From a virus, in the IMG/VR virus record IMGVR_UViG_3300025645_000065: DNA of 64,000 nucleotides; one strand, 5' to 3'. Shown one piece after another: positions 11,002-57,853 of the stretch; position 1 is the stretch's first letter, and the number at the start of each line of letters is the position of its first letter. Under the pieces are notes generated by a model. It was not told the DNA's origin. It was given only the letters and a program-made list of their open reading frames with translations, and ran no database searches. The position numbers were made by a program, and so were the translations under genes.

Positions 11002-11745
11002 TTAGAAGCCTGTATACCCGTTCTCTTGGTAGAAGATATAATGTTTCTTGTAGATAGTTCCTAAAATTTTTGCTATTTTAGTTATCTTAGAGGTTTTAAC
11101 GTCTGTTATTTCTCTAATGTAAATGTATAGAGCTTTCTTATTGAATAAGGTAATTGTATCCCTCTTTCTAAATAACTCTAGTATTGCATCTGCAATTTGA
11201 GCTTGTTCTTTTTTAGGAAAGATCTTGTATATATTATCTGTACAATACTCTATATAGTCATTCATAAACTTCGTGGAATCTTCTTCTTGCTGGAGTAGGA
11301 GAGTTTCTGGTGTATTTTCCTCTAGGTTAATAGACTCCCTGTAGGAGGTCTGTGCATCTTCCTGCTCTACGTGTAAGTTTTCTAAAGATACCATCTCTAA
11401 CCTTTTCTTATAGTTCTTTTGATTAGAGGCTATTAAGTATCTTTTTGCGATAGTTCCGAAATAGGAGTATGCCTTCGCTCCGTTAGTAGGATCGAATTTG
11501 TGGAGTTTTGTTAAAAGGAAAGTAATAACTTCGTGTTGAAGGTCCTCTAAGTTGGATTCTTCTGTATAGTAAAACTTAAAGGTGTGAATTAAGTTTTGAG
11601 TAAGTTTAAAGAGAGCGAAGTGTATCTCATCTCTATAAATTGCATTCTTTTCTTCATAGTCTTCTGTTGCGTTATATCTATTTATTGCAAGTTCCGTCTC
11701 ATGTGAAAAGTAATTAGTTGTTTTTGTTTTCTTTTTGGGGGCCAT
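11002..11745 (-). CDS. Putative sigma-factor-like transcription regulator
   Basis: 247 aa. The segment AYSYFGTIAKRYLI resembles sigma-70 region 2. This is tentative. Confidence 0.3.
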   Translation of the reverse strand: MAPKKKTKTTNYFSHETELAINRYNATEDYEEKNAIYRDEIHFALFKLTQNLIHTFKFYYTEESNLEDLQHEVITFLLTKLHKFDPTNGAKAYSYFGTIAKRYLIASNQKNYKKRLEMVSLENLHVEQEDAQTSYRESINLEENTPETLLLQQEEDSTKFMNDYIEYCTDNIYKIFPKKEQAQIADAILELFRKRDTITLFNKKALYIYIREITDVKTSKITKIAKILGTIYKKHYIFYQENGYTGF

Positions 11746-20609: not shown

Positions 20610-20747
20610 TGTCAAGGACAGGATTCGAACCTGTAAATTATTAAGTGCTTCATTCTATAGATCAGCTCACCATTACGTTTAGCTTAAGGATTTAATCACT
20701 ATAGAGAACTGCACAGGTTTTAGCGTCTGCCATTCCGCCACCTTGAC
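20610..20747 (-). ncRNA. tRNA-scaffold element, 138 nt. Acceptor variant GTCAAGG/CCTTGAC with a Leu-like D arm and canonical T arm.
   Basis: 5' GTCAAGGTGGCGGAATGGCAGACGC ... ACAGGTTCGAATCCTGTCCTTGACA 3' with an ~88-nt core. The downstream flank is conserved with the copy at 23790. Confidence 0.35.
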
Positions 20748-20801
20748 ATTTTGCGTTCTATTGAAAAAGGAAGTTAGTGCGCCTATACCTGATGTCTTTA
20801 A

Positions 20802-23789: not shown

Positions 23790-23948
23790 TGTCAAGGACA
23801 GGATTCGAACCTGTACGATTAGAGTTTTTGCACTTGTTAGTACTATCTTTTAAGCTATCAGCGATATCACCTACACACCTATCTAATCTATAAAACCTAC
23901 TAGCGTCTACCACGTCAGGGGACACCCCTAACCTTCCGCCACCTTGAC
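23790..23948 (-). ncRNA. tRNA-scaffold element, 159 nt (GTCAAGG acceptor variant) with an extra hairpin inserted in the D loop
   Basis: 5' GTCAAGGTGGCGGAAGGTTAGGGGTGTCCCCTGACGTGGTAGACGC ... ACAGGTTCGAATCCTGTCCTTGACA 3'. Confidence 0.3.
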
Positions 23949-24002
23949 ATTTTGCGTTCTATTGAAAAAGGAAGTTAGTGCGCCTATACCTTTTACCTTT
24001 AA

Positions 24003-24776: not shown

Positions 24777-25265
24777 TCATTTGTTTAGTATTTGTTGTGT
24801 TAATTTTAAATCGTTTTGGTTCTCAGGATGTTCAGCAAAACAATGTTCCCAATATTCTTGAACTGCTCGCTTGATAAATTCCACTTCTTCAATTGTGTAT
24901 GTTTTATCAAAGCCTCTGCTTTCTCCATTTGAACTTTTGAAGGTTAGTTCTTTGCCTTGTGAATCGTAGGTATATTCACAACAAGTTCCTTTTGAATTTT
25001 TATAGGTTAATAAATTACCATTTGAATCGTATGTATATTCACAACTATATCCATTTGAATGTTTGTAGGTTAATACCTTACCTTGTGAATCTCTTGTATA
25101 TTTATACCAAGTTCCATCTGAATTTTTATAGGTTAATAAATTACCATTAGAATCTCTGGTGTATTCACAACTATATCCATTTGAATCTTTGTAATACTTA
25201 TAAACTTTGATACCATTCTCATTGAATAGTTCTAAATTCTCTTCTGTTCCTTGTATGTTTTTCAT
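24777..25265 (-). CDS. YD/RHS-like repeat small protein (MKNIQGTEENLELFNENG leader family)
   Basis: 162 aa. Tandem ~21-aa repeats YKNSDG.S.EYTRDSNGK.LT carrying the Y.YD..G.L signature. Confidence 0.4.
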   Translation of the reverse strand: MKNIQGTEENLELFNENGIKVYKYYKDSNGYSCEYTRDSNGNLLTYKNSDGTWYKYTRDSQGKVLTYKHSNGYSCEYTYDSNGNLLTYKNSKGTCCEYTYDSQGKELTFKSSNGESRGFDKTYTIEEVEFIKRAVQEYWEHCFAEHPENQNDLKLTQQILNK

Positions 25266-25738
25266 TGTTTCTTTTTAAATTGTTCAAACCATTCTTGCTC
25301 TTGAATTTCATCACTAAAAGATAAATATTCTTTAAATTCTTTAAGAATTATCAACACCTCTTCAGGTGTGTAGGTTTTATCAAAGCCTCTGCTTACTCCT
25401 TTTGAATTTTTATAGGTTAGTTCCTTACCTTGTGAATCTCTTGTATATTCACAAGTAAATCCATTTGAATCTTTGAAGGTTAATACCTTACCATTTGAAT
25501 CGTACGTGCGTTCATACCAAGTTCCATATGAATCTTTGAAGGTTAATTCCTTACCATTTGAATCGTAGGTGTATTCATACCAATATCCATTTGAATTTTT
25601 ATAGCTTAACTCATTACCGTTTGAATCTCTTGTGTATTCATAGCTATATCCAAATGGATGTTTAAAATACTCATAAACTTGTTTACCATTATCATTGAAT
25701 AGCTCTAAGTTCTCTTCTGTTCCTTGTATGTTTTTCAT
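25262..25738 (-). CDS. YD/RHS-like repeat small protein
   Basis: 158 aa paralog ending WFEQFKKKQ. Confidence 0.4.
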   Translation of the reverse strand: MKNIQGTEENLELFNDNGKQVYEYFKHPFGYSYEYTRDSNGNELSYKNSNGYWYEYTYDSNGKELTFKDSYGTWYERTYDSNGKVLTFKDSNGFTCEYTRDSQGKELTYKNSKGVSRGFDKTYTPEEVLIILKEFKEYLSFSDEIQEQEWFEQFKKKQ

Positions 25739-26162: not shown

Positions 26163-27011
26163 TTATTTCTTTTTAAATTGTTCAAACCATTGTTCTAAAT
26201 CTACTGTCACTAATGCTGATTGCAAGGCTTCTGAAATAATTAATTTAACTTCTTCCTCACTATACATTCTTTCTTGTTGCCATTCAGTACCTTCTTTAAA
26301 GTTTTGAATTTGTAATAGTTTACTATCTATCCATTGCTGTGTAGGAACTGGTATCATAGCTGTCTTCCTATTGTAATTAGCTTCGGCAGCTTCTTCAAGT
26401 GTTTCTTGTTTAGTTTCTTCTTTTGTCAGTTTAATTGCACAAGGTTCACATTGAACTGCTCTTTTATCTCCTGTAAATTCTATTTTACAAGTTACACAAG
26501 TACACCCATAATGACCCGGAGCATACCCACCAATTGGATATTTTTGTTTAGTTTTTTCTTTTGGAATGATAGTTTTGTGTCTTACTTTTGTATCAACTTC
26601 CCATTCAGATGGTAATAAAACCTCTTTCCATACTCCGTTGTTAGATAAGTATTCTTTCTCAACCTCAACCTCCTCACAACTTGGATTCTTAACAAACCAT
26701 TCTAAGAACTCATCATCAATAGCTTGTACACCATCTTTGATTAAATCTTGGTCTGTTGTTAGAATGATTTGTCTTGGTTTATTGTTACTTATTAAAGCCA
26801 TTGTGTTTTGCCATAACCAAACCCTACCATTATTATAAACCCAAATATTATTTTCAAATCCAGTAATTTCTTCATCAGATGTGATGTAGATGTGTTTTGC
26901 AATATTGGTTGGATGTTGAGAAGGAAATTCATCTAATTCTAATCTTCTTCTTAGATTATTAATCCATAACCTACTTGGTTTGTCTGTTGGAATTACGTGT
27001 ATATTTTTCAT
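26163..27011 (-). CDS. Hypothetical protein with a Cys-rich zinc-ribbon segment. Its C-terminus is shared with the gene at 41787..42500.
   Basis: 282 aa. Contains HYGCTCVTCKIEF...CEPC and a C-terminal EGTEWQQERMYSEE...WFEQFKKK module. Confidence 0.3.
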   Translation of the reverse strand: MKNIHVIPTDKPSRLWINNLRRRLELDEFPSQHPTNIAKHIYITSDEEITGFENNIWVYNNGRVWLWQNTMALISNNKPRQIILTTDQDLIKDGVQAIDDEFLEWFVKNPSCEEVEVEKEYLSNNGVWKEVLLPSEWEVDTKVRHKTIIPKEKTKQKYPIGGYAPGHYGCTCVTCKIEFTGDKRAVQCEPCAIKLTKEETKQETLEEAAEANYNRKTAMIPVPTQQWIDSKLLQIQNFKEGTEWQQERMYSEEEVKLIISEALQSALVTVDLEQWFEQFKKK

Positions 27012-27012
27012 A

Positions 27013-27372
27013 TTATTTTTTTATTTTAAAGTTTCCAATTTTGGATACTAACTCTTCCATAGTGTACTCAGGTATATCAAAGCCTCTGCTTTCTCCATTT
27101 GAATCTTTGTATGTTAATTCATTGCCATTTGAATCTCTTGTATATTCACAACTAAATCCATCTGAATTTTTGGAGGTTAATATCTTACCATTTGAATCTC
27201 TTGTAAATTCATAACTATATCCATCTGAATTTTTATAGGTTAATACCTTACCATTTGAATCTCTTGTATATTCACAACTAAATCCATTTGAATTTTTAAA
27301 ATACTCATAAACTCTTACACCCTCTTGATTGAATAGCTCTAATTTCTCTTCTGTTCCTAATATGTTTTTCAT
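27013..27372 (-). CDS. YD/RHS-like repeat small protein
   Basis: 119 aa paralog, preceded by motif-2. Confidence 0.4.
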   Translation of the reverse strand: MKNILGTEEKLELFNQEGVRVYEYFKNSNGFSCEYTRDSNGKVLTYKNSDGYSYEFTRDSNGKILTSKNSDGFSCEYTRDSNGNELTYKDSNGESRGFDIPEYTMEELVSKIGNFKIKK

Positions 27373-32786: not shown

Positions 32787-33350
32787 TTACTCATTATCTG
32801 ATAGGTGTTTTATTATTGGATCTGTTAAGAAGTCTACCCACATCTCTACTGAGGTTGTATGTAGCACTTCATAGACTTTATCAAGTGGTAAATTCATTAT
32901 CTCTACTAGTTTCTCTTTCAAGATAGGTCCTTCATCTACTCCCTCTGTTACTCTATGGATAACACAGCCAGACACACTTAGACCCAAGCGATAAGCCTTC
33001 TCTTGAGGGTCCTTTCCTTTAAGTATTCCATCCTGTAGAGATAATGCCCCTGGATGTCCATTAAACATATTAGGGTGCTTCTGTAGAACCTCTGCTGGTA
33101 TTATTCTAAGCCATCCATGTAATGTAATTAAGGCTGACTCTTCTCCGAATGCTTCTAAGTAGTCCTCTACTGAAGGAGTTCCTTTTAGGTATGTAATTTC
33201 TCTTGTCGCCAATGCTGGATGTAGAGTACCTATACTCTCAGGCTTCCTGTTAGTTATAAGCCTATCAGGCCACTTACCTAACCTTTCTGCTATCTGTGCT
33301 ATTTCGGATCCTGTCTGCGAAAAACAACATATCCATTTTATATCTTTCAT
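32787..33350 (-). CDS. Formyltransferase-domain protein (PurN/Fmt N-terminal-domain-like)
   Basis: 187 aa. The segment LHGWLRIIPAEVL...NGHPGAL matches formyl-transferase core motifs. Confidence 0.45.
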   Translation of the reverse strand: MKDIKWICCFSQTGSEIAQIAERLGKWPDRLITNRKPESIGTLHPALATREITYLKGTPSVEDYLEAFGEESALITLHGWLRIIPAEVLQKHPNMFNGHPGALSLQDGILKGKDPQEKAYRLGLSVSGCVIHRVTEGVDEGPILKEKLVEIMNLPLDKVYEVLHTTSVEMWVDFLTDPIIKHLSDNE

Positions 33351-33641: not shown

Positions 33642-34505
33642 TTATGCGTAAGCGTTTGCTAGTGCAAAGAGTTCTTTGTTCACCTGCAGGTCTCTTGAAA
33701 AGGATTGAACTCTTCGAGCTGTCTTATTACGACCAGTCTCTGTCTTATAGTCAAACCCTCCTTGGATCATATTCTCCTGAAGGATGTTATACACAGCCCA
33801 TAGACTATTACCAGCGTCTGCTTGTCTTGTTGGCTGTAGTACTTTAGAAGGCTCTACTACCGCTCCTTCTTTTCCGAATCTAATCCCTAGAGCTCCTAAA
33901 GCGAATTCGATCTTCTGCTCTTCCGTTAACTCTACCTGTCTAAATCTGTTCAGTACTTCTACTGTTGCAGGTAGCTCATTAACCATTCTAGTAAGAGTCT
34001 CTGAAAGCTCTTCGAAAGAGTATCCTCTATGTCTAATAGTAAGTGATCCGAAATTCTCAGTAGATACTACTAGACCGTTACTACAGGCCATTCTAAAGAG
34101 CCCGGCATTAAATTTAAAAGCTCCCATTCCGTTGTGAGAGTTAGTGATAAGGATCTGAGGATAAACAGTCTCTCCATCTTCAGTTCTCATTACGATCTCT
34201 TCGTTTCTGAAGACTACCATATGCTTTGCGAACTTGTTTCTTTCTTGATCTTTCCCAAACTGTTGATCTACGGCAGTTACATTCCATCCTAACTTCTCCA
34301 TATCCGAGATAAGAACCGTTGTAGGTACGTGAACATAACGTTCAGATACTCTAGGGTGACTGTTCTGCTCTACTACTGCAGGAGCTTGAGTTGCGATTTG
34401 AGCTAATGTAAGCGGGGTGTTGTTTTGTAAATTTAGCATAACTTTTATTTTTATATTTCTTATTATCTTATACCTAAAGATACGGACTAATTCCGTACCA
34501 GGCAA
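33642..34505 (-). CDS. Hypothetical protein (DUF932-like, tentative)
   Basis: 287 aa with the ILITNSHNGMGAF segment. Confidence 0.3.
   Translation of the reverse strand: MPGTELVRIFRYKIIRNIKIKVMLNLQNNTPLTLAQIATQAPAVVEQNSHPRVSERYVHVPTTVLISDMEKLGWNVTAVDQQFGKDQERNKFAKHMVVFRNEEIVMRTEDGETVYPQILITNSHNGMGAFKFNAGLFRMACSNGLVVSTENFGSLTIRHRGYSFEELSETLTRMVNELPATVEVLNRFRQVELTEEQKIEFALGALGIRFGKEGAVVEPSKVLQPTRQADAGNSLWAVYNILQENMIQGGFDYKTETGRNKTARRVQSFSRDLQVNKELFALANAYA
34469..34486 (-). promoter_or_regulatory. Motif-1 copy, between tRNA-Gln and the upstream CDS
   Basis: tatacctaaagatacgga with a TACGGAattagTCCGTA hairpin. Confidence 0.4.
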
Positions 34506-34522
34506 GCTTTTTTTTCAATTTG

Positions 34523-34595
34523 TAGTCAGGACAGGTCTCGAACCTATACTCTTCTGTACCAAAAACAGACGTGTTGCCAATTACACCACCTGACT
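34523..34595 (-). tRNA. tRNA-Gln(UUG), canonical 73-nt cloverleaf
   Basis: Hand fold: acceptor AGTCAGG/CCTGACT, D stem GTGT/ACAC, anticodon stem TCTGT/ACAGA, loop TTTTGGT, T loop TTCGAGA, A73. Confidence 0.6.
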
Positions 34596-34707
34596 AAATT
34601 ATTAATATAAAAGTAATAAGCTAAGGATTTTCACCTCCGAAGTCTCTTTATTAGATTGTTCCTTATCTAGCGAGTGCAATCGCGTATTACGACACTTATT
34701 ACTTCTG

Positions 34708-34819
34708 TAGTCAGGACAGGATTCGAACCTGTATTTGTATATGTTTGTGACCTCGACTGCCGTTGTATCCTCAAACTAAATCACCTGCCGATGTGCGTCT
34801 ACCATTCCGCCACCTGACT
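34708..34819 (-). ncRNA. tRNA-scaffold element B, 112 nt
   Basis: 5' AGTCAGGTGGCGGAATGGTAGACGC plus a 62-nt divergent core plus ACAGGTTCGAATCCTGTCCTGACTA 3'. Confidence 0.35.
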
Positions 34820-34925
34820 ATATTAAATGGGTAACCTCAACCAGTTTATGGTTATGCGTTATGACAATCATCTCGTGAATGTCATAGATAGACCCCATAT
34901 GCTATCTATTAGTTATTACCATTTG

Positions 34926-35010
34926 TAGTCAGGACAGGATTCGAACCTGTATTGTTGTTACATCACTCACATTCATTAGTGAGTAGCGTCTACCATTCCG
35001 CCACCTGGCT
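34926..35010 (-). tRNA. tRNA-like (type-II length, 85 nt) on the shared scaffold. The anticodon loop is non-canonical and may be 8 nt.
   Basis: Same acceptor/D/T arms. Candidate anticodon stem CTCAC/GTGAG with loop TAATGAAT. Confidence 0.35.
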
Positions 35011-35071
35011 ATATTCTAATTCTATGCTCTCCGCCCTAACACGGCTATGAATTAGTAACAGTCCCTTTTTG

Positions 35072-35212
35072 TAGTCAGGACAGGATTCGAACCTGTATAG
35101 ATTTAAAGATATAATCTCCCATCACTCGTGTTTGTAATGTGTCCTCCAGTTTCCCCTATTCAACACTCTTTTAGGTACTGACCAGCGCGTATACCAATTC
35201 CGCCACCTGACT
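35072..35212 (-). ncRNA. tRNA-scaffold element D, 141 nt
   Basis: Shared 5' and 3' tRNA arms with a ~90-nt core. Confidence 0.3.
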
Positions 35213-35293
35213 AAATGGTGGAGCGTCACTTATTTCTAAGTTATCCACCTCAGTTACATTATCTCACGATAAGAGGCTTTACTGAGCCCAAGG

Positions 35294-35400
35294 TAGTCAG
35301 GACAGGATTCGAACCTGTATGTTTAATAATTCTACACACCTGACGCTACACCAGGCATATTATTAAACTCACTTGCGTCTACCAATTTCGCCACCTGACT
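35294..35400 (-). ncRNA. tRNA-scaffold element E, 107 nt
   Basis: Shared arms. The D loop is AAATTGGTAGA. Confidence 0.3.
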
Positions 35401-35449
35401 ATTTTAATTTTATTACCAACATGTCAATGAACTCTTATTCTTTCTATCT

Positions 35450-35467
35450 TATACCTAAAGATAAGAA
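35450..35467 (-). promoter_or_regulatory. Motif-1 copy inside the tRNA array
   Basis: tatacctaaagataagaa. Confidence 0.35.
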
Positions 35468-35503
35468 CTAATTCTATCTTAAGCAAGCTTTTTTTTCAAT
35501 TTG

Positions 35504-35579
35504 TAGTCAGGACAGGATTCGAACCTGTACTCGGTGATACATTTGCAACTGCTCATTCCGATGCCAACTTTTCCTGACT
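35504..35579 (-). tRNA. tRNA-like, 76 nt. Shared acceptor and T arm but a divergent 5' half. Possible GCA (Cys) anticodon, poorly folded.
   Basis: 5' AGTCAGGAAAAGTTGGCATCGGAATGAGCAGTTGCAAATG...ACAGGTTCGAATCCTGTCCTGACTA 3'. Confidence 0.3.
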
Positions 35580-35660
35580 CCGATGTCTTTCCATCAGTAT
35601 AGATTTAGTATTGACTTACCAATGAACTGGCATTGGTACTTGCCCCAAACCAAGGCTAGG

Positions 35661-35760
35661 TAGTCAGGACAGGATTCGAACCTGTAACTTTTTCCGACCT
35701 AATTTACAACCTTATCTATCGACTCAGTGTCGTTGCGTCTACCAATTTCGCCACCTGACT
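35661..35760 (-). ncRNA. tRNA-scaffold element G, 100 nt
   Basis: Shared arms with a divergent core. Confidence 0.3.
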
Positions 35761-35953
35761 ATTTTATTAAAATGGCAAAGATTATAATACCACTTCTTCA
35801 ATATAAGGGATTTGTCTGTACCCCTTTGTTTTATATCTAGAAAGCAACCTATTAAAGTGTTTTTTATCTTTACAGATTATAGTGATAGTTCCTCCGCTTT
35901 TTTCCATTTTCAATATAAGGTTCATACTTTTTTTATTTTATTTCTTATTATCT

Positions 35954-35970
35954 TATACCTAAAGATACGG
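35954..35970 (-). promoter_or_regulatory. Motif-1 copy inside the tRNA array
   Basis: tatacctaaagatacgg. Confidence 0.35.
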
Positions 35971-36007
35971 ACTAATTCCGTACCAGGCAAGCTTTTTTTT
36001 CAATTTG

Positions 36008-36117
36008 TAGTCAGGACAGGATTCGAACCTGTATGTTTACTCGTTTAGGCAATCAGACGAATCACTCTGAACCACTTAACTTTCAACGGTCTGCGTCTAC
36101 CATTCCGCCACCTGACT
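36008..36117 (-). ncRNA. tRNA-scaffold element H, 110 nt
   Basis: Shared arms with a divergent core. Motif-2 lies upstream. Confidence 0.3.
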
Positions 36118-36164
36118 ATTTTAATTTTATTACCAACATGTCAATGAACCTAACCCTTTTACGT

Positions 36165-36198
36165 CGTAAATATACGACCGCTCCCTCGGGGAACCAAC
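36165..36198 (-). promoter_or_regulatory. Motif-2 copy inside the tRNA array, upstream of scaffold element H
   Basis: cgtaaatatacgaccgctccctcggggaaccaac. Confidence 0.35.
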
Positions 36199-36210
36199 AT
36201 TGTGTTTTTG

Positions 36211-36270
36211 TGGAGTGAAGGGATTTGAACCCTTTGTCTGTACCTGTACGACTTTAACCAAACCACTCCT
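36211..36270 (-). ncRNA. Truncated or degenerate tRNA-like element. T arm GGGTTCAAATCCC and acceptor GGAGTG/CACTCC, but no D arm.
   Basis: Hand inspection only. Confidence 0.2.
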
Positions 36271-36326
36271 GGACCTGCAGACCCGTTATAACTTATGCAT
36301 CAACCTCAATGCTTCAACCCTTTGGC

Positions 36327-36417
36327 TATTACGGGTGTGGACTCGAACCACATTTTTCAGTTACCTATGCTTTTTCAAACTTGGTTTTAGTTGCTTTCCT
36401 TGCGCAAGTTCCATAAC
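36327..36417 (-). ncRNA. Degenerate tRNA-like element, 91 nt. T arm TGTGG-TTCGAGT-CCACA and D arm TTGC/GCAA are present, but no clean anticodon stem.
   Basis: Hand inspection only. Confidence 0.2.
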
Positions 36418-36683
36418 TAATTTCCAGTATCGCCACGTGGAGGCGTTTGATGGATACCGCTGAGCTTCGTTATTCTTCTTTCGAATATTCTTTCATACTT
36501 TACTTTAGCCTTATCTCGAGTTGACTATTTCTAGCTTCTTATACAATTTATTTCTTTTCGTTATCCCCTACTGCCCGCTTGGATACGTTTACGAAAGCTT
36601 CCCGGTTTGTTCAATTCTGTTACGAACCCCAAACGAATATATGGGTTAAGAACCAATGCTTGTATCCGGTAATCAATACGGTG

Positions 36684-36757
36684 ATGTTGTGATAGGAATC
36701 GAACCTACTTACGGCAACTCCTGTTACGGACCCGCTCTGCCAATGAGCTACACAACA
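36684..36757 (-). tRNA. tRNA-like, 74 nt. Acceptor TGTTGTG/CACAACA, D stem GCTC/GAGC, T loop TTCGATT, and a weak anticodon stem.
   Basis: Hand fold. The isotype could not be resolved. Confidence 0.35.
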
Positions 36758-36802
36758 AACTTGCAACTTTGTCTTTCTATGTTTCGGGGTTGCCACCTTC
36801 TG

Positions 36803-36911
36803 TAGTCAGGACAGGATTCGAACCTGTAATGTAATATGGAGCTTAATTCAGCATACTTACCTTTCGTCTTACAACTATTCAATAATGCGTCTACCATTCC
36901 GCCACCTGACT
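36803..36911 (-). ncRNA. tRNA-scaffold element I, 109 nt
   Basis: Shared arms with a divergent core. Confidence 0.3.
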
Positions 36912-37038
36912 ATTTGCTGACTAATAAGGATTCGAACCTTAAACCTGAGCTCCAATTACGGCCTCCGTGCACCTTTACACCATAATCAATCGATGACTTG
37001 CAAATCATCAGTCTTAAGGTAATTAATCTTAAGATTTG

Positions 37039-37110
37039 TAGCGGGGGCAGGATTCGAACCTGCGACCTTCGGGTTATGAGCCCGCTGAGCTACCACTGCT
37101 CTACCCCGCA
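37039..37110 (-). tRNA. Initiator tRNA-fMet(CAU)
   Basis: Anticodon stem-loop GGGCTCATAACCC with three G-C pairs, a 1:72 mismatch (T/T), D stem GAGC/GCTC and T loop TTCGAAT. Close to bacterial initiator tRNA. Confidence 0.7.
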
Positions 37111-37116
37111 ATATAG

Positions 37117-37190
37117 AACTACCCATAGGACTCGAACCTATAACCCTTCGGCGATTGCCGATGTGCAAACCAATTTACACCATAAGTAGC
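37117..37190 (-). tRNA. tRNA-like, 74 nt. Acceptor GCTACTT/GGGTAGT with G-U pairs, T loop TTCGAGT, degenerate D and anticodon arms.
   Basis: Hand fold. In place of a 7-nt anticodon loop there is a 4-nt loop on stem TCGGC/GCCGA. Confidence 0.25.
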
Positions 37191-37285
37191 TATTCAAGAA
37201 GACAGCCAGAAATTAGTGACGTCAAATCTCTTTAAGCTATGTGAACTATCTTCTTGTTGGGATCAGTTAATTACTCCGATCTTTG

Positions 37286-37382
37286 TAATTATGATTGGAT
37301 TCGAACCAATTCCAGCTTTACAATAAAGAGTATATTTCAACTCAACCTTTGTGAGGTGCCGCCAACCAATGGCCTCATAATC
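37286..37382 (-). ncRNA. tRNA-like element, 97 nt. Acceptor GATTATG/CATAATT, T arm ATTGG-TTCGAAT-CCAAT.
   Basis: Hand inspection only. Confidence 0.25.
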
Positions 37383-37678
37383 ATTTTTAGTCTTTTCCTT
37401 ACCTCTTAATAATTACACTGCCAACCGGATGTTACTGTCCGGTGCTTACCAATCATACTGGGGCAATTATTACATTGAGCAGATACTCAGAATCGAACTG
37501 AGATCTCCAGATTGGAAGTCTGGAGTAATAACCGTTATACGATATCTGCTTATTTTTAATATCGAGAATTGTAATGTACTATTTCTATTAATGGCAGACT
37601 CACCTACATTCGGATTTTTAAAACTCCTCTCTATTAAATTATTACCAATACGTCAAAGAACTCTTATTCTTTCTATCT

Positions 37679-40631: not shown

Positions 40632-41342
40632 TTAATGTCTACAGATTGATGCGAGTTCAATATTCTTATAGAACTCTGCTTTAGTTGAGTCTTCATTTAG
40701 GAATGCTCCTGTAAGTACTGCAGTCTGCATTGATGCTCCTTGATGTCCTACTCCCCTACATGCTACGCAATTATGTCCTGCATTTATCTGCACTGCTACC
40801 CCTAGGTTACCCTCGCATATCTTATCTACTGCATTGTGTATCGCTACTGTAAGCTGCTCTTGTATTGCCCCTCTTCTGCCGAATTGTTCTACTATCCTAT
40901 TAAGTTTAGATAGCCCTACTACCATGCCGTTTTCAGAGGCTATATATGCTATAGAAACCTTCCCGGTAATCGTTAAGTGGTGGTGACTGCACATTGAAAT
41001 TACCGGTATATTAGACTCCTGCACTATCCCTGAATAGCCATCGCTAGGAAAAGCTGTTACTCTATCTAGAGGATTATACCTTCCAGCAAACAGATCATTC
41101 ACATATGCTTTAGCTACCCTCTTAGGAGTATCGGAAGAGTTAGGATCATTCTCCCAATCTACTCCTAAAGCAGTAAGGAAGCTTCCGAAGTGCTTAGCTG
41201 CTTGGCTGATTATTTTTTCTTTCTCTTTATCAGTTAATCTAGCTTCTGGGCCATCTTTTAACTGCTTCTCTGCTAGTTGGGTTGAAATCCCGTTAGCGAA
41301 TCCTGCTTGAACTAATTCAGTTCCTTCTATAAACTTCTTCAT
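40632..41342 (-). CDS. folE: GTP cyclohydrolase I
   Basis: 236 aa carrying the FolE signature CSHHHL...HNCVACRGV. Confidence 0.75.
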   Translation of the reverse strand: MKKFIEGTELVQAGFANGISTQLAEKQLKDGPEARLTDKEKEKIISQAAKHFGSFLTALGVDWENDPNSSDTPKRVAKAYVNDLFAGRYNPLDRVTAFPSDGYSGIVQESNIPVISMCSHHHLTITGKVSIAYIASENGMVVGLSKLNRIVEQFGRRGAIQEQLTVAIHNAVDKICEGNLGVAVQINAGHNCVACRGVGHQGASMQTAVLTGAFLNEDSTKAEFYKNIELASICRH

Positions 41343-41786: not shown

Positions 41787-42500
41787 TTATTTCTTTTTAA
41801 ATTGTTCAAACCATTCTTTAAAACTTCCTTTATCCTCACCAATAAACATCATTCCTGCTTCAAAAGCGCTAAGTAAATCTTCCTCACTATACATTCTTTC
41901 AGCTTGCCATTTAGCACCTTCAATAAAATCATTTATTGGATATTCCTTTTCTACTCCCATAGGATATTGCATTTTTACATAGTATTCTGCAGCTTCTTCA
42001 AGTGTGTATGTTTTATCAAACCCTCTGCTTACTCCATCTGAATTTTTGTAGGTTAATTCCTTACCTTGTGAATCTCTTGTATATTCACAACTAAATCCAT
42101 TTGAATTTTTGTAGGTTAGTTCCTTACCGTTTGAATCGTAGGTATATTCAGAATTAACTCCATCTGAATCTTTATAGGTTAATTCCTTACCGTTTGAATC
42201 TCTTGTATATTCATAACTAAATCCATTTGAATTTTTGTAGGTTAATACCTTACCTTGTGAATCATAGGCGTATTCAGAATTAAATCCATCTGAATCTTTA
42301 TAGGTTAATTCCTTACCGTTTGAATCTCTTGTATATTCACAACTAAATCCATCTGAATTTTTATAGGTTAGTTCCTTACCTTGTGAATCGTAGGTATATT
42401 CATAGATATATCCATATGAATTTTTAAAATACTCATAAACTTTGATGCCATTCTCATTGAATAGCTCTAATTTGTCTTCTGTTCCTTGTATGTTTTTCAT
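41787..42500 (-). CDS. YD/RHS-like repeat protein with the shared C-terminal module
   Basis: 237 aa with about 8 YD repeats, ending EGAKWQAERMYSEE...WFEQFKKK. Confidence 0.4.
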   Translation of the reverse strand: MKNIQGTEDKLELFNENGIKVYEYFKNSYGYIYEYTYDSQGKELTYKNSDGFSCEYTRDSNGKELTYKDSDGFNSEYAYDSQGKVLTYKNSNGFSYEYTRDSNGKELTYKDSDGVNSEYTYDSNGKELTYKNSNGFSCEYTRDSQGKELTYKNSDGVSRGFDKTYTLEEAAEYYVKMQYPMGVEKEYPINDFIEGAKWQAERMYSEEDLLSAFEAGMMFIGEDKGSFKEWFEQFKKK

Positions 42501-56245: not shown

Positions 56246-57853
56246 TTAGCCGTAGATTAAGTCTTGACTTTTCTCCTCTGGCTTGTCTGTAAGTTCGTCT
56301 GCTACGACTGCTTCGGTAAGCATTATCGTTCCTGCTACTGATGCTGCATTCTCTAATGCTGTTCTTGTTACTTTAAAAGGGTCTATAATACCTGCTTCTT
56401 TCATATTAACAATCTTTCTATCATGTACATGGTAGCTACTCCAAGGCCCTGCTTCTAAGACTTCTCCTAATACGGTTTCGATTTCCTCTCTCTCGTATCC
56501 TGCATTGCTTAGGATCTTAATAAATGGAGCTTGACAAGCTTCTTGAACAATCATTGCACCTGTTGAGGTTCCGGTTATGTTCATACTTGCATGTAGTAAT
56601 GTTGATCCTCCGCCAGGTACGATTCCTTGCTCGATTGCTGCTCTAGTAGCGTGTAATGAATCCTCTACCCGGTCTTTAGTCTCTTTCATTTCTATTTCAG
56701 AATTACCTCCTACGTGTATGATAGATACTCCTCCTGTAAACTTACCTAATCTTTCTTGAAGCTTTTCAGTCTCGAATGGAGTTTTTGCATTATCGATTTG
56801 AGATCTTAGTTCTGCTATTCTCTGATCGATTGCTTCTGGTGCTCCTTTGCCGTCTATAATGATAGTATTCTCTTTCATTATGTTAGCTTTTCTAGCTTGT
56901 CCGAACCATGCTCTATCTAGCCGAGTGAGCTTCATTCCCTTCTCAGGGCTAATTACTTGCCCGCCTGTTAGTATAGCTATGTCTTCCATTATTAACTTTC
57001 TCCTATCTCCAAAGTCAGGAGCCTTTACTGCAACTACTTTTAAAGTACCTCTCATCTTATTAACGATTAAGGTTGCAAGTGCTTCGTTGTCTATATCCTC
57101 ACATACAATTAATAAAGATTTATTCTCAGAAGATACTGATTCTAATACCGGTAGTAGTTCTTTAGCTTGAGATAGTTTACCGTCGTAGATTAATACGTAA
57201 GGTGAGTCTAGGACTGCTGACATATTACTGTTATCGTTTACGAAGTATGGAGACTTGTAACCTCTATCGAATTGAATGCCTTCTACAGTCTCTAAGTAAG
57301 TCTCTCCTGTTCTAGATTCTTCGATAGTTACAATACCGTCTCTACCTACTGCTTCGAGTGCAGATGTAATAAGGTTACCTACCATCTCATCGTTGTTAGC
57401 AGATACTGTAGCAACTTGCTTAAGCTGGTCTTCTGCTGTTATCTCTTCTGCAATGTTTGCTTTAATATAGGCTATAACTTCTTTAACTGCTTCATCTACT
57501 TCTCTTTTAATCTGTACTGCATTTCCTTTATTATCTAATGCGTTAAGACCTCCTCTAGTAATAGATTGCGCTAGTAGAGTAGAGGTTGTTGTTCCATCCC
57601 CTGCTGTGTTAGCGGTGTTGATTGCAGCCTGCTTAAGCATATCGATTGCTATTGATCTAACTGGATCTTTTAGCTCTATAACTTTTGCTACCGTTACACC
57701 ATCTTTAGTGGACCGTACTTCTCCGGTTTCATCTCTGTACACTACGTTCCGTCCGTTAGGCCCTAATGTGGAGGTTACTGCATTTGCCAGTAAGTCAATA
57801 CCTGCAAGCAGTTGCTTCCTAGCTTCGTTTGAATATTCTATGTGTTTGCTCAT
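56246..57853 (-). CDS. groL: Chaperonin GroEL (Cpn60)
   Basis: 535 aa, full-length similarity to GroEL (AAVEEGIVPGGG, GGG(S/T)). No GGM tail. Confidence 0.9.
   Translation of the reverse strand: MSKHIEYSNEARKQLLAGIDLLANAVTSTLGPNGRNVVYRDETGEVRSTKDGVTVAKVIELKDPVRSIAIDMLKQAAINTANTAGDGTTTSTLLAQSITRGGLNALDNKGNAVQIKREVDEAVKEVIAYIKANIAEEITAEDQLKQVATVSANNDEMVGNLITSALEAVGRDGIVTIEESRTGETYLETVEGIQFDRGYKSPYFVNDNSNMSAVLDSPYVLIYDGKLSQAKELLPVLESVSSENKSLLIVCEDIDNEALATLIVNKMRGTLKVVAVKAPDFGDRRKLIMEDIAILTGGQVISPEKGMKLTRLDRAWFGQARKANIMKENTIIIDGKGAPEAIDQRIAELRSQIDNAKTPFETEKLQERLGKFTGGVSIIHVGGNSEIEMKETKDRVEDSLHATRAAIEQGIVPGGGSTLLHASMNITGTSTGAMIVQEACQAPFIKILSNAGYEREEIETVLGEVLEAGPWSSYHVHDRKIVNMKEAGIIDPFKVTRTALENAASVAGTIMLTEAVVADELTDKPEEKSQDLIYG

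Follow-up and report, generated by a model that had tools for sequence, protein, structure and literature searches.

A phage tRNA array built on a common tRNA-Leu-like frame with unrelated cores

Tandem tRNA-like units in the array

The window (the whole 64,000-nt stretch analysed, IMG/VR record IMGVR_UViG_3300025645_000065) comes from a phage that is a relative of Flavobacterium phages, and all of its genes lie on a single strand. About ten genes of this phage keep the ends and elbow of a tRNA-Leu and have the anticodon part swapped for unrelated inserts. The array at 34,523-37,382 forms an accessory island that relatives lack. Its features and those around two outlying units are as follows.

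20610-20747, minus strand: outlier O1, 138 nt, GTCAAGG/CCTTGAC acceptor, Leu-type D arm, 82-nt insertion
20753-20789, minus strand: 37-nt motif GGTATAGGCGCACTAACTTCCTTTTTCAATAGAACGC, 5 nt upstream of O1
23790-23948, minus strand: outlier O2, 159 nt, O1's acceptor, additional hairpin within the D loop
23954-23990, minus strand: second copy of GGTATAGGCGCACTAACTTCCTTTTTCAATAGAACGC, upstream of O2
34441-34548, minus strand: 108-nt repeat (family D3) that follows unit A
34523-34595, minus strand: unit A, tRNA-Gln(UUG) (ARAGORN and Rfam tRNA, 61.6 bits)
34708-34819, minus strand: unit B, 112 nt, Leu-type frame, 61-nt core
34926-35010, minus strand: unit C, 85 nt, frame with a 6-bp stem and 8-nt loop UAAUGAAU
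35072-35212, minus strand: unit D, 141 nt, frame, 90-nt core
35294-35400, minus strand: unit E, 107 nt, frame, long hairpin core
35410-35427, minus strand: motif TTGACATGTTGGTAATAA (repeat family D7), just 5' of unit E
35504-35579, minus strand: unit F, 76 nt, family acceptor and T arm
35661-35760, minus strand: unit G, 100 nt, Leu-type frame, exact ACAGGTTCGAATCCTGTCCTGACTA end
36008-36117, minus strand: unit H, 110 nt, Leu-type frame, exact ACAGGTTCGAATCCTGTCCTGACTA end
36127-36144 and 37639-37656, minus strand: further copies of TTGACATGTTGGTAATAA, 5' of unit H and of tRNA-Gly
36684-36757, 36916-36988 and 37117-37190, minus strand: non-canonical tRNA-like units on other frames (ARAGORN)
36803-36911, minus strand: unit I, 109 nt, Leu-type frame, exact ACAGGTTCGAATCCTGTCCTGACTA end
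37039-37110, minus strand: initiator-type tRNA-Met, 66.2 bits, 1:72 mismatch, GGG/CCC anticodon stem
37286-37382, minus strand: unit J, 97 nt, tRNA-like, another acceptor (GATTATG/CATAATT) and another T stem
37478-37549, minus strand: canonical tRNA-Gly(UCC) (ARAGORN and Rfam), 5' end of the array

Eight tandem units (34708-36911, minus strand), not separated by any ORF of at least 150 aa, terminate in the 25-mer ACAGGTTCGAATCCTGTCCTGACTA, which has eight exact copies from 34708 to 36827 and is expected zero times by chance. A ninth copy, with three mismatches, forms the 3' end of the tRNA-Gln. Seven of the eight units (B, C, D, E, G, H and I) open with a bacterial tRNA-Leu acceptor and D arm, in the block AGTCAGG-TG-GCGGAAT(T)GGTAGACGC. 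An earlier sequence-only reading had described such near-identical ends, and both are borne out, as are its two outlying copies (O1 and O2), whose acceptor is shifted and still complementary. The same reading put unit lengths at 85-159 nt; the array units actually run from 76 to 141 nt. The perfect acceptor complementarity that it described fails in unit C, which has a C3-A70 mismatch. The two tRNAs that it called textbook examples, Gln(UUG) and the initiator, are recognized at the scores listed above.

The cores of the window units show no relation to each other by sequence comparison, as had been claimed. Unit A has a canonical anticodon arm, yet carries the family acceptor helix AGTCAGG/CCTGACT and A73; its body matches a tRNA-Gln in contig L002 except for the acceptor and T stem. 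Unit F, with a homologue in L078, lacks the Leu-type D arm, and unit D was missed by Rfam, and by ARAGORN when the intron option was off. The core of unit E has a folding z-score of -3.6. O1 scores 35.1 bits against the Rfam tRNA model with its anticodon arm skipped, and a D-loop insertion akin to that of O2 is found in L042 and L086. At least four non-canonical tRNA-like units stand on other frames, namely unit J and the three units between 36684 and 37190, a minus-strand stretch that also holds unit I and the initiator-type tRNA-Met. The Val-AAC and Ile-AAT tRNAs that ARAGORN called in this stretch have implausible A34 anticodons and no Rfam support.

Promoter motifs had been reported as interspersed in the array. 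A scan for sigma-70-type promoters came out at chance (six found vs 9.2 expected), whereas two specific motifs do lie directly 5' of units. In the window, GGTATAGGCGCACTAACTTCCTTTTTCAATAGAACGC occurs only upstream of O1 and O2, and at least nine other contigs have relatives of it 24-69 nt upstream of units; it is a candidate unit-specific promoter or leader. TTGACATGTTGGTAATAA, with three matches vs 0.06 expected, is a candidate promoter. The 108-nt D3 repeat covers the 3' end of a unit plus roughly 80 nt beyond it, in which there is a hairpin; copies are found after units A, F (35422-35529) and H (35926-36033). We infer from sequence that the units are transcribed.

Distribution of the frame and exchange of the cores

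Each of two independent patterns found the frame in at least 120 IMG/VR contigs, which range from 26 to 54% GC. Among the representative genomes of 185,579 species it appeared in only fourteen MAG contigs, and cultured phages gave no match. Cellular genomes, cultured phages and Rfam essentially lack the frame, and a search of the cores against Rfam matched no family. Cores that vary on fixed ends, which the sequence-only reading proposed to look for in related genomes, are what we found: one frame is joined to about 130 non-redundant, unrelated cores among the matches listed. Across contigs the units are intergenic, co-oriented with neighbouring genes (216:45) and at a median distance of 300-490 nt from flanking ORFs, and many stand singly between ORFs.

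In about thirty-three unit pairs the cores are 90-100% identical and the 400-nt flanks unrelated. Where identical units sit in unrelated flanks, homology stops 0-2 nt from the unit ends. The core of unit H is 95-98% identical in L114, L185, L193 and L229, whose flanks are unrelated. One core can be found on different acceptors: L229 puts the unit H core on a GTCAAGG acceptor, L201 bears a unit B-type core on another acceptor and T stem, and the core of unit J is homologous to AGTCAGG-frame units in L031, L105 and L009. One core, in L008, lies just 3' of a tRNA without any frame. At one orthologous site (flanks 84-93% identical) we found at least four unalignable cores, which argues for cassette exchange.

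Compensatory changes occur within families B, C and J. The unit B core, with homologues in L034 and L201, has compensatory pairs at 45:76 and 52:70. Double compensatory changes affect five of the six pairs of the unit C stem (window unit, L033 and L011), on which the loop UAAUGAAU is invariant and lacks U33. In the unit J family, six pairs spread over the acceptor, D-like and T stems are compensatory. No motif shared among the roughly 130 cores was found, antisense matches of cores within the window did not rise above shuffled controls, and no co-conserved partner protein was found in the unit flanks.

Helices, tRNA-Leu features and decoding

For a test of the helices, only the D-arm 18-mer and the next T-loop motif served to define units. 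Of 109 such units, with forty-one distinct acceptor helices among them, ninety-eight pair at all seven positions in the correct register, and none or one does so in a shifted register. G:U pairs outnumber A:C pairs in the long units (36 vs 11, about 3:1, in both helices). Because of this excess and the covariation, we take the helices to be RNA helices under selection as such. The AGTCAGG acceptor helix is kept letter for letter in 48 of 94 units of a sample blind to the acceptor, and bodies that look like decoders carry it too (Gln in the window; Lys, Val and Ile elsewhere). Units as short as 66-80 nt bear a capped hairpin only, with no cargo, which may mean that the chassis has a role of its own.

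The D arm of the frame is identical to that of E. coli tRNA-Leu. Nucleotides of the tRNA tertiary contacts are kept (U8, A14, A15:U48, G18G19 and the T loop); among 152 distinct units, U8-G9 is present in 127, U48 in 132 and C74 in 148. Every E. coli LeuRS identity element (A73, A15:U48, G18G19) is retained. These elements suffice for leucylation, and tRNA-Leu variants without the anticodon and variable arms stay chargeable (PMC9976931). Since LeuRS recognition ignores both of those arms (PMC9976931), the common Leu frame would accept leucine, and the earlier argument that shared arms would cause mischarging is weak.

Infernal, with the Rfam tRNA model, aligned only the acceptor, D and T arms of the units and skipped the anticodon arm, in keeping with the claim that this arm is missing or degenerate. 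ARAGORN called cloverleaves in 30 of 152 real units vs 23-30 of 152 core-shuffled units, and in intron mode in 108 real vs 97-105 core-shuffled units; standard cloverleaves with sensible anticodons were not obtained for every unit. Because cloverleaves are no commoner than in the shuffled controls, we conclude that the units do not decode. They are not ordinary decoding tRNAs but a common tRNA-Leu-like frame with unrelated cores, and they point to an apparently undescribed family of non-decoding phage RNAs.

Possible roles and known systems

The best explanation, to which we would give about an even chance, is a natural tRNA chassis on which exchangeable effector inserts are displayed; it would be processed and stabilised, and may be leucylated. 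The units would be genes of a phage-borne family of non-decoding, tRNA-shaped small RNAs. Their constant chassis, derived from a bacterial class II tRNA-Leu, runs from an acceptor helix of 7 bp, most often AGUCAGG/CCUGACU, through U8, a D arm of Leu type (A14, A15, G18G19), U48 and an ordinary T arm to A73 and C74, and its arms should assemble into a tRNA elbow and an acceptor/T minihelix. In place of the anticodon and variable region stands one of more than 100 unrelated inserts of about 20-150 nt. Transcription would occur together with neighbouring tRNAs or from the units' own upstream motifs, followed by RNase P cleavage at +1, 3' trimming after A73/C74 and completion of CCA; the chassis would confer tRNA-like stability, and it may be leucylated because the LeuRS identity set is complete. 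The insert would do the work, probably as a structured module for binding a host or phage factor. Inserts would pass from phage to phage as cassettes, recombining within the constant arms, a pattern expected of accessory functions (counter-defence or host takeover, for example) that are under diversifying selection. Among the roles offered by the sequence-only reading, a natural scaffold for cargo RNAs fits best, given the conservation of the cores, the compensatory changes in them and their exchange among phages. Several results count against the chassis reading: the cores fold only slightly better than shuffled ones (mean z -0.6), no closing helix common to them was found, the sigma-70-type scan was at chance, and neither a target nor a partner protein emerged from the searches of cores and flanks.

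A processing or stability role does not explain the letter-for-letter acceptor helix. It would suit a rival reading in which the chassis itself is active as an acceptor-end decoy, sponge or escape form with secondary inserts. Plentiful RNAs of tRNA shape and unusual acceptor helix would sequester, or go unseen by, host effectors of the acceptor stem or the CCA end (toxSAS, MenT/AbiEii-type nucleotidyltransferases, acceptor-stem tRNases), or else titrate LeuRS or EF-Tu. The helix recurs unchanged across contigs of 26-54% GC and on the Gln, Lys, Val and Ile bodies, and the cargo-free short units and full LeuRS identity set fit as well. The antiphage toxSAS FaRel2 picks tRNAs by acceptor pairs 1, 2, 4 and 5 (PMC11559606), and the family helix is unlike its determinants (G1-C72, C2-G71, G4-C69, G5-C68) at all four. 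An active chassis is nonetheless doubtful: it leaves unexplained the conserved, covarying long cores swapped at a fixed site, the same architecture occurs on several other covarying acceptor helices, and these hosts have no known effector. The decoys for anticodon nucleases proposed earlier are unlikely given the lack of an anticodon loop; one that acts through the acceptor end, as decoy or escape form, is conceivable. At the DNA level, the units could be small mobile or recombinogenic cassettes (MITE- or attC-like) with 7-bp terminal inverted repeats and a relic tRNA shape, which would spread through phage genomes or be shuffled in them. Homology that ends at the unit ends, replacement at one site, the inverted repeats and the GIY-YIG and NUMOD3 endonuclease genes in some loci would all suit such cassettes, which we consider unlikely given the RNA signature of G:U over A:C, the preserved tertiary-contact nucleotides, the co-orientation with genes, the compensatory changes within cores and the lack of a linked integrase or transposase in the flanks examined.

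The units might serve only as RNase P/RNase Z signals or 3' stabilisers of long minus-strand transcripts, in the manner of mitochondrial t-elements, as their intergenic, co-oriented and often solitary positions and the placing of all window genes on one strand would allow. Such punctuation needs no insert, yet the cores are long, conserved and covarying; it also leaves the eight tandem units without intervening ORFs unexplained, and the flanking ORFs are distant, which makes this earlier proposal quite improbable. Unconventional decoding, by introns, expanded anticodon loops (quadruplet decoders or suppressors) or leucine-inserting recoders, would draw on the 4-base anticodon that ARAGORN assigns to unit C, the invariant 8-nt loop on a covarying 6-bp stem in C-type units, near-canonical Leu(UAA)-like loops in a few units elsewhere, and a Leu frame that would be charged whatever its anticodon. 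We find it very improbable, as the cloverleaf calls match the shuffled level, predicted anticodons mostly start with A34, most loops, including the C-type loop, lack U33, and the 40-150 nt inserts have neither group I features nor an Rfam match. Decaying duplicates of a phage tRNA-Leu gene are strongly disfavoured and scarcely credible: a place inside a tRNA array, degenerate anticodon arms and a CUUAAG-like relic of the Leu(UAA) loop in some cores are what pseudogenes might show, but true decay would erode the arms too, and here the ends are exactly conserved in at least 120 contigs, cores are 90-100% identical among otherwise unalignable contigs, and compensatory changes are present.

In the engineered tRNA scaffold, a cargo RNA takes the place of the anticodon arm and is processed and protected as a tRNA by the cell. 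Like the units, this scaffold for recombinant RNA (Ponchon and Dardel; e.g. PMC3753655) keeps the acceptor, D and T arms and replaces the anticodon arm; it is man-made and joins its cargo through the anticodon stem, whereas the phage units share no closing helix, are built on a class II Leu body and may be chargeable. Bacterial class II tRNA-Leu shares the D arm, A73, A15:U48, G18G19 and T loop, and its long extra arm is native. The units differ in lacking a 5-bp anticodon stem with a 7-nt loop and in an acceptor helix that cellular genomes essentially lack; unit-bearing contigs also have canonical tRNA-Leu genes, on different acceptors. T4 species 1 and 2 RNAs (rnaC and rnaD), whose function is listed as unknown (PMC9697503), resemble the units as stable RNAs of 139 and 119 nt in a same-strand phage tRNA cluster, and at the end of rnaC a tRNA-like 3' terminus comes after a perfect T arm, CCGGGTTCGAATCCCGG. 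They have no sequence similarity to the units, rnaC lacks a clean 7-bp acceptor helix and a Leu-type D arm, and each is a single fixed sequence per phage lineage, in contrast to a shared frame with exchangeable inserts.

Like the units, tmRNA (SsrA) has a tRNA-like acceptor and T arm domain with a large insertion at the position of the anticodon arm, and it is aminoacylated via an identity set independent of the anticodon, as proposed here. It has a G3:U70 alanine identity, pseudoknots, a tag reading frame and the partner SmpB; the units have U3:A70. ARAGORN found no tmRNA in the window, and Rfam's sole tmRNA match, at 12.6 bits against a gathering score of 47, lies in a different element at 36208-36269. 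In the MHV68 TMER vtRNA-miRNA genes, mascRNA/MALAT1 and plant mitochondrial t-elements, a tRNA-shaped element recruits RNase P/RNase Z. As in the units, that element sets the ends of another RNA, but these systems are eukaryotic and their cargo lies beside, not inside, the tRNA-like element (for t-elements, see PMC1920247). The frameless core copy of L008, just 3' of a tRNA, is the sole resemblance to that layout.

A shared tRNA-Leu-like frame and its distribution

The window has the character of a large phage genome, with all ORFs of at least 150 aa except one on the minus strand, and its products include a baseplate wedge protein, a GroEL-like chaperonin, a family A DNA polymerase, and glycosyltransferases. 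The nearest cultured relative is Flavobacterium phage vB_FspM_immuto, with 63 per cent identity between the DNA polymerases. ARAGORN called six tRNAs in the window and Rfam seven. No long ORFs lie within the array (34523-37549), whose minus-strand units combine a constant acceptor, D arm, and T arm (the frame) with unrelated cores. The 3' 25-mer of the frame, ACAGGTTCGAATCCTGTCCTGACTA, occurs in eight exact copies where none is expected, and the 5' block AGTCAGG-TG-GCGGAAT(T)GGTAGACGC opens seven of the eight units bearing it. The sequence-only reading had described such an array with two outlying copies, and both the repeats and the outliers were seen here. It needed small corrections: unit F (35504-35579) is without a D arm, unit C (34926-35010) has a C3-A70 mismatch, and the window holds additional tRNA-like units on other frames. 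The outliers and other features of the window are as follows.

11002-11745: gene for a sigma-70 region 2 protein (weak match)
20610-20747, minus strand: outlier unit O1, with the complementary acceptor variant GTCAAGG/CCTTGAC
23790-23948, minus strand: outlier unit O2, with the complementary acceptor variant GTCAAGG/CCTTGAC
20753-20789 and 23954-23990: identical copies of a 37-nt motif, GGTATAGGCGCACTAACTTCCTTTTTCAATAGAACGC, found in the window only 5' of the two GTCAAGG units
32787-33350: gene for a protein with a formyltransferase N domain; it lies two genes downstream of the array, and an initiator-type tRNA is part of that array
40632-41342: gene for GTP cyclohydrolase I
56246-57853: gene for the GroEL-like chaperonin

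The window also carries paralogous small ORFs with RHS/YD-repeat matches (24777-25265, 25262-25738, 26163-27011, 27013-27372, and 41787-42500), a family present in twelve other loci too. Within the array, 36208-36269 is a 62-nt mini tRNA-like element with a 6-bp acceptor (GGAGTG/CACTCC), the T arm AAGGGTTCAAATCCCTT, and a weak Rfam tmRNA match (12.6 bits). The stretch 36207-37307 is about 85 per cent identical to parts of one comparison locus, L126.

At least 120 IMG/VR contigs carry the 3' 25-mer. Among the genomes representing 185,579 species of bacteria and archaea, only fourteen contigs have it; each is a MAG contig, and six are labelled Bacteroidota. From the loci listed we collected 152 distinct units of 66-267 nt with the common 5' block, and their cores fell into about 130 unrelated groups. 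A second scan of IMG/VR used the D-arm 18-mer as its sole query and was therefore blind to the acceptor. Among the matches listed, 48/94 distinct complete units had the AGTCAGG acceptor, and the other forty-six were either tRNA-Leu genes of canonical type or units with long cores on different helices. The frame-bearing loci listed range from 26 to 54 per cent GC and have few genes in common.

The frame was not found in cultured phages: megablast and blastn searches of the array and of unit H (36008-36117) against 50,697 phage records matched tRNA-Gly and tRNA-fMet only. Rfam searches of the window, the array, the outlier region, and twenty related loci returned nothing but tRNA, with no family match for the cores. 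We found no published description of the family in full-text literature searches, which included the frame sequence itself, and a 2023 survey of viral structured RNAs names tRNA-like candidates only in general terms (PMC10690425). In the closest relatives of the window, found via DUF932, the AAA_28-DUF932 interval is 1.5-1.8 kb and contains no tRNA-like unit, compared with 4.9 kb in the window, which makes the array an accessory island. Flavobacterium phage immuto likewise has no array beside its DUF932 gene.

Frame structure and tRNA identity

Taking the D-arm motif and the T-loop motif that follows it as the sole definition of a unit, we examined the pairing of unit ends. In 98/109 units the heptamer ahead of the D arm is fully complementary to the one following the T stem, compared with 0-1/109 when the register was shifted. 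Forty-one different acceptor helices were represented, with each pair type occurring at each position. Non-Watson-Crick positions in the long units were more often G:U (36) than A:C (11), the signature of an RNA helix rather than of DNA inverted repeats. These patterns indicate that the frame is an RNA structure under selection.

The units retain a 7-bp acceptor helix with discriminator, a D arm with G18G19, and a TTCRANY T loop. What they lack, except for unit A, a tRNA-Gln(UUG) at 34523-34595, is an anticodon stem of 5 bp bearing a 7-nt loop (with U33 and a purine at 37), and likewise a sensible anticodon. Infernal scored units at 35-42 bits, entirely from the acceptor, D, and T arms; its alignments skipped the anticodon arm via a local end and left 40-82 bases unaligned. 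ARAGORN called 30/152 distinct family units as tRNAs, and 23-30/152 when the cores alone were shuffled. With introns allowed, the counts were 108/152 for real and 97-105/152 for core-shuffled units. Predicted anticodons were mostly implausible (A34, no U33). The units are thus not decoding tRNAs, in agreement with the sequence-only reading, which had named as the contrary outcome a set of cloverleaves with sensible anticodons and canonical introns throughout. ARAGORN and Infernal did not return that outcome, since cloverleaf calls equalled those of shuffled controls and the anticodons were mostly implausible. Frame-bearing contigs also hold ordinary tRNA-Leu genes of 80-87 nt, whose anticodon arms are normal and whose acceptor helices differ from that of the frame, so the frame is not the phage's working tRNA-Leu.

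Nucleotides of the frame that build the tRNA elbow are kept: U8-G9 in 127/152 units and U48 in 132/152, along with the T loop and A73. C74 is present in 148/152 units, and T predominates at position -1 (judged by eye from the upstream sequences, not tallied). Both lend indirect support only to a proposed processing by RNase P and 3' enzymes into a stable RNA. The D arm of the frame is identical to that of E. coli tRNA-Leu. For E. coli LeuRS, the complete identity set comprises A73, A15:U48, G18G19, and D/T-loop contacts, and tRNA-Leu variants without anticodon and variable arms are still active in aminoacylation (PMC9976931). As the frame has A73, the A15:U48 Levitt pair, G18G19, and an intact D/T-loop interaction, and the anticodon is not required, leucylation of unit RNAs is plausible.

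Some units depart from the common layout. Outlier O2 and units in two comparison loci (L042, L086) have an extra hairpin of 20-55 nt that interrupts the D loop between GGCGGAA and TGGTAGACGC, so there is a second site at which the frame tolerates insertions. In two others (L120, L049), 93-nt units with the AGTCAGG acceptor have two T-arm-like hairpins (GGTCGGTTCGAGTCCGAT and AGAGGTTCGATTCCTCT) inside one acceptor helix.

Cores as exchangeable modules

The sequence-only reading had suggested comparing related phages to see whether cores vary while ends stay fixed. In one contig group with both flanks 84-93 per cent identical, at least four unalignable D-arm-plus-core segments occupy one site; the acceptor and T arm are constant and the D-arm-plus-core is replaced. 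This same-site replacement is the most telling sign that the cores are exchangeable modules. Another pattern was seen in about thirty-three unit pairs with cores 90-100 per cent identical and 400 nt on each side unalignable, where homology ends 0-2 nt from the unit ends. Loci are generally 65-78 per cent identical to the window, coding DNA included. Cores also occur on other acceptors: that of unit H is found on a GTCAAGG acceptor in L229 (98 per cent identity), and that of unit B (34708-34819) on another helix in L201 (95 per cent identity). The core of unit J (37286-37382), which has its own acceptor and T stems, is shared with AGTCAGG-frame units of other contigs, with six compensatory pairs. 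Compensatory pairs also occur within the core of family B (window, L034, L201), and in family C (window, L033, L011) 5/6 stem pairs are doubly changed, with the 8-nt loop UAAUGAAU above them invariant. At L008:8455-8532, the core of the L066 and L077 units has neither acceptor nor T arm around it and lies immediately 3' of a canonical tRNA; it may be either a free-standing precursor or a derivative of the framed unit. By these comparisons, the cores behave as functional, exchangeable modules.

Searches for what the cores might do returned little. Their folding was barely above shuffled (mean z -0.6), they hold one to three top-level stems, a common closing helix was not above control, and no common motif was found. 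Antisense targets had been proposed for checking, and none beyond chance was present in the window: the longest complementary runs between its cores and its minus-strand RNA matched shuffled controls. A protospacer-like search across 1.2 Mb of related loci placed every core match inside other units, bar the frameless L008 copy. All-against-all clustering of 2,794 flanking ORFs from 135 sources (134 loci plus the window) identified no consistently linked protein family, the commonest neighbour being DUF932 (18/135 sources). There were no tRNA-processing enzymes among the annotated window ORFs and no tRNA enzyme in the flanking-ORF clusters.

A sigma-70 promoter scan of the window was at chance level. 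The sequence TTGACATGTTGGTAATAA recurs directly 5' of units E (35294-35400) and H and of tRNA-Gly. Related copies of the 37-nt motif are found 5' of units, at a distance of 24-69 nt, in at least nine other contigs (including L025/L076, L029/L052/L069, L204, L067, and L087). Their positions are suggestive of dedicated promoters or leaders, for which both sequences are candidates.

Interpretation and relation to known RNAs

A heterologous insert replaces the anticodon arm and the acceptor, D, and T arms are retained, which is the layout of a tRNA-scaffolded cargo RNA; a member of that functional class would also be processed by RNase P and 3' enzymes into a stable RNA in vivo. The best-supported reading is a natural tRNA chassis with an exchangeable insert. 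Specific tests contradict each of the readings of the units as punctuation (an alternative offered by the sequence-only reading), pseudogenes, intron-containing tRNAs, tmRNA, and DNA repeats. Excising one contiguous insert restores a cloverleaf no more often than in shuffled units (ARAGORN intron mode), against an intron-containing tRNA. The inserts are 20-150 nt without an Rfam intron match, and a group I intron would be expected at about 200 nt or more. Hallmarks of tmRNA are G3:U70 alanine identity, a tag reading frame, and pseudoknots; in the units pair 3:70 is U:A, ARAGORN finds no tmRNA, and the Rfam tmRNA model matches no unit. The roughly thirty-three pairs with near-identical cores despite unalignable flanks contradict pseudogenes, and a DNA cassette with terminal inverted repeats (MITE/attC-like) is contradicted by the excess of G:U over A:C, with no linked recombinase found.

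A less probable rival is that the acceptor end itself matters, for example by evading or absorbing host effectors that read acceptor stems. The antiphage toxSAS FaRel2 reads acceptor stems (PMC11559606). The family acceptor helix is conserved letter for letter, and in the window a tRNA-Gln body has even received it as a graft (compare L002); short units without cargo exist too. A pure carrier role leaves the exact conservation and the cargo-less units unexplained, and both keep the rival in play. The frozen helix may report on such effectors. On the chassis reading, the constant part would recruit the tRNA maturation machinery and give stability, and might also be leucine-charged and EF-Tu-bound, and the variable part would be an effector module swapped among phages as a cassette. 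From fixed-site turnover, core diversity, accessory-island clustering, and horizontal spread, we infer a resemblance to counter-defence or host-takeover genes. Our fullest proposal is tentative, and we hold it less likely than not: phages, probably infecting Bacteroidota and possibly other hosts, may keep a natural modular RNA display on a tRNA-Leu-derived chassis. The host tRNA machinery would process this chassis, which might also be leucylated, and recombination in the constant arms would swap over 100 different effector modules into it. If true, this would be a small-RNA arsenal shared horizontally and turning over fast, equivalent at the RNA level to anti-defence protein islands.

Among natural RNAs, the nearest analogues are RNAs C and D of the phage T4 tRNA cluster. 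The units resemble this type in being non-decoding RNAs of a phage tRNA cluster with a tRNA-like 3' domain, a likeness of kind only. Close to the 3' end of T4 rnaC lies a perfect T arm, as in the units, but rnaC has neither a Leu-type D arm nor a 7-bp acceptor, and blastn against the 50,697 phage records found no homology of the array to rnaC or rnaD. Another natural analogue, tmRNA, also joins a tRNA-like domain to a large insert, and in design the closest parallel is the engineered tRNA scaffold. Decoding tRNA, intron-containing tRNA, tmRNA, and rnaC homology each have defining tests, which the family fails; we rate it among non-decoding tRNA-like small RNAs, a kind already known. Should the modular-chassis reading be confirmed, it would stand as categorically new.

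If expressed, the units would form a large class of phage non-coding RNA with no description in the literature searched, missed by annotation pipelines or mislabelled as odd tRNAs. They would be a natural counterpart of the engineered scaffold and would offer a way, by comparison, into T4 RNAs C and D, a puzzle of 50 years' standing. They would also supply over 100 RNA modules, ready-made and already tested by evolution, and the targets of these could bring new phage-host interactions to light. Because LeuRS ignores the replaced region of tRNA-Leu, the Leu body also raises the idea of charged but non-decoding tRNA mimics during phage infection.

The function of T4 RNA C is still unknown (PMC9697503). 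In the T4 genome, rnaC (species 1 RNA, L135:2909-3047) folds well (z -4.6), and at its end a perfect tRNA T arm precedes a short 3' strand resembling that of an acceptor. For rnaD, z is -0.8 and no such feature is seen. In a 455-kb IMG/VR contig (3300015214_000024, L169:7827-7979), a canonical-looking tRNA-Leu(UAA) has its anticodon loop split between CTT and AAAAT by about 70 nt. The interruption sits where introns of tRNA-Leu classically lie, and its length falls far below that of a group I intron.
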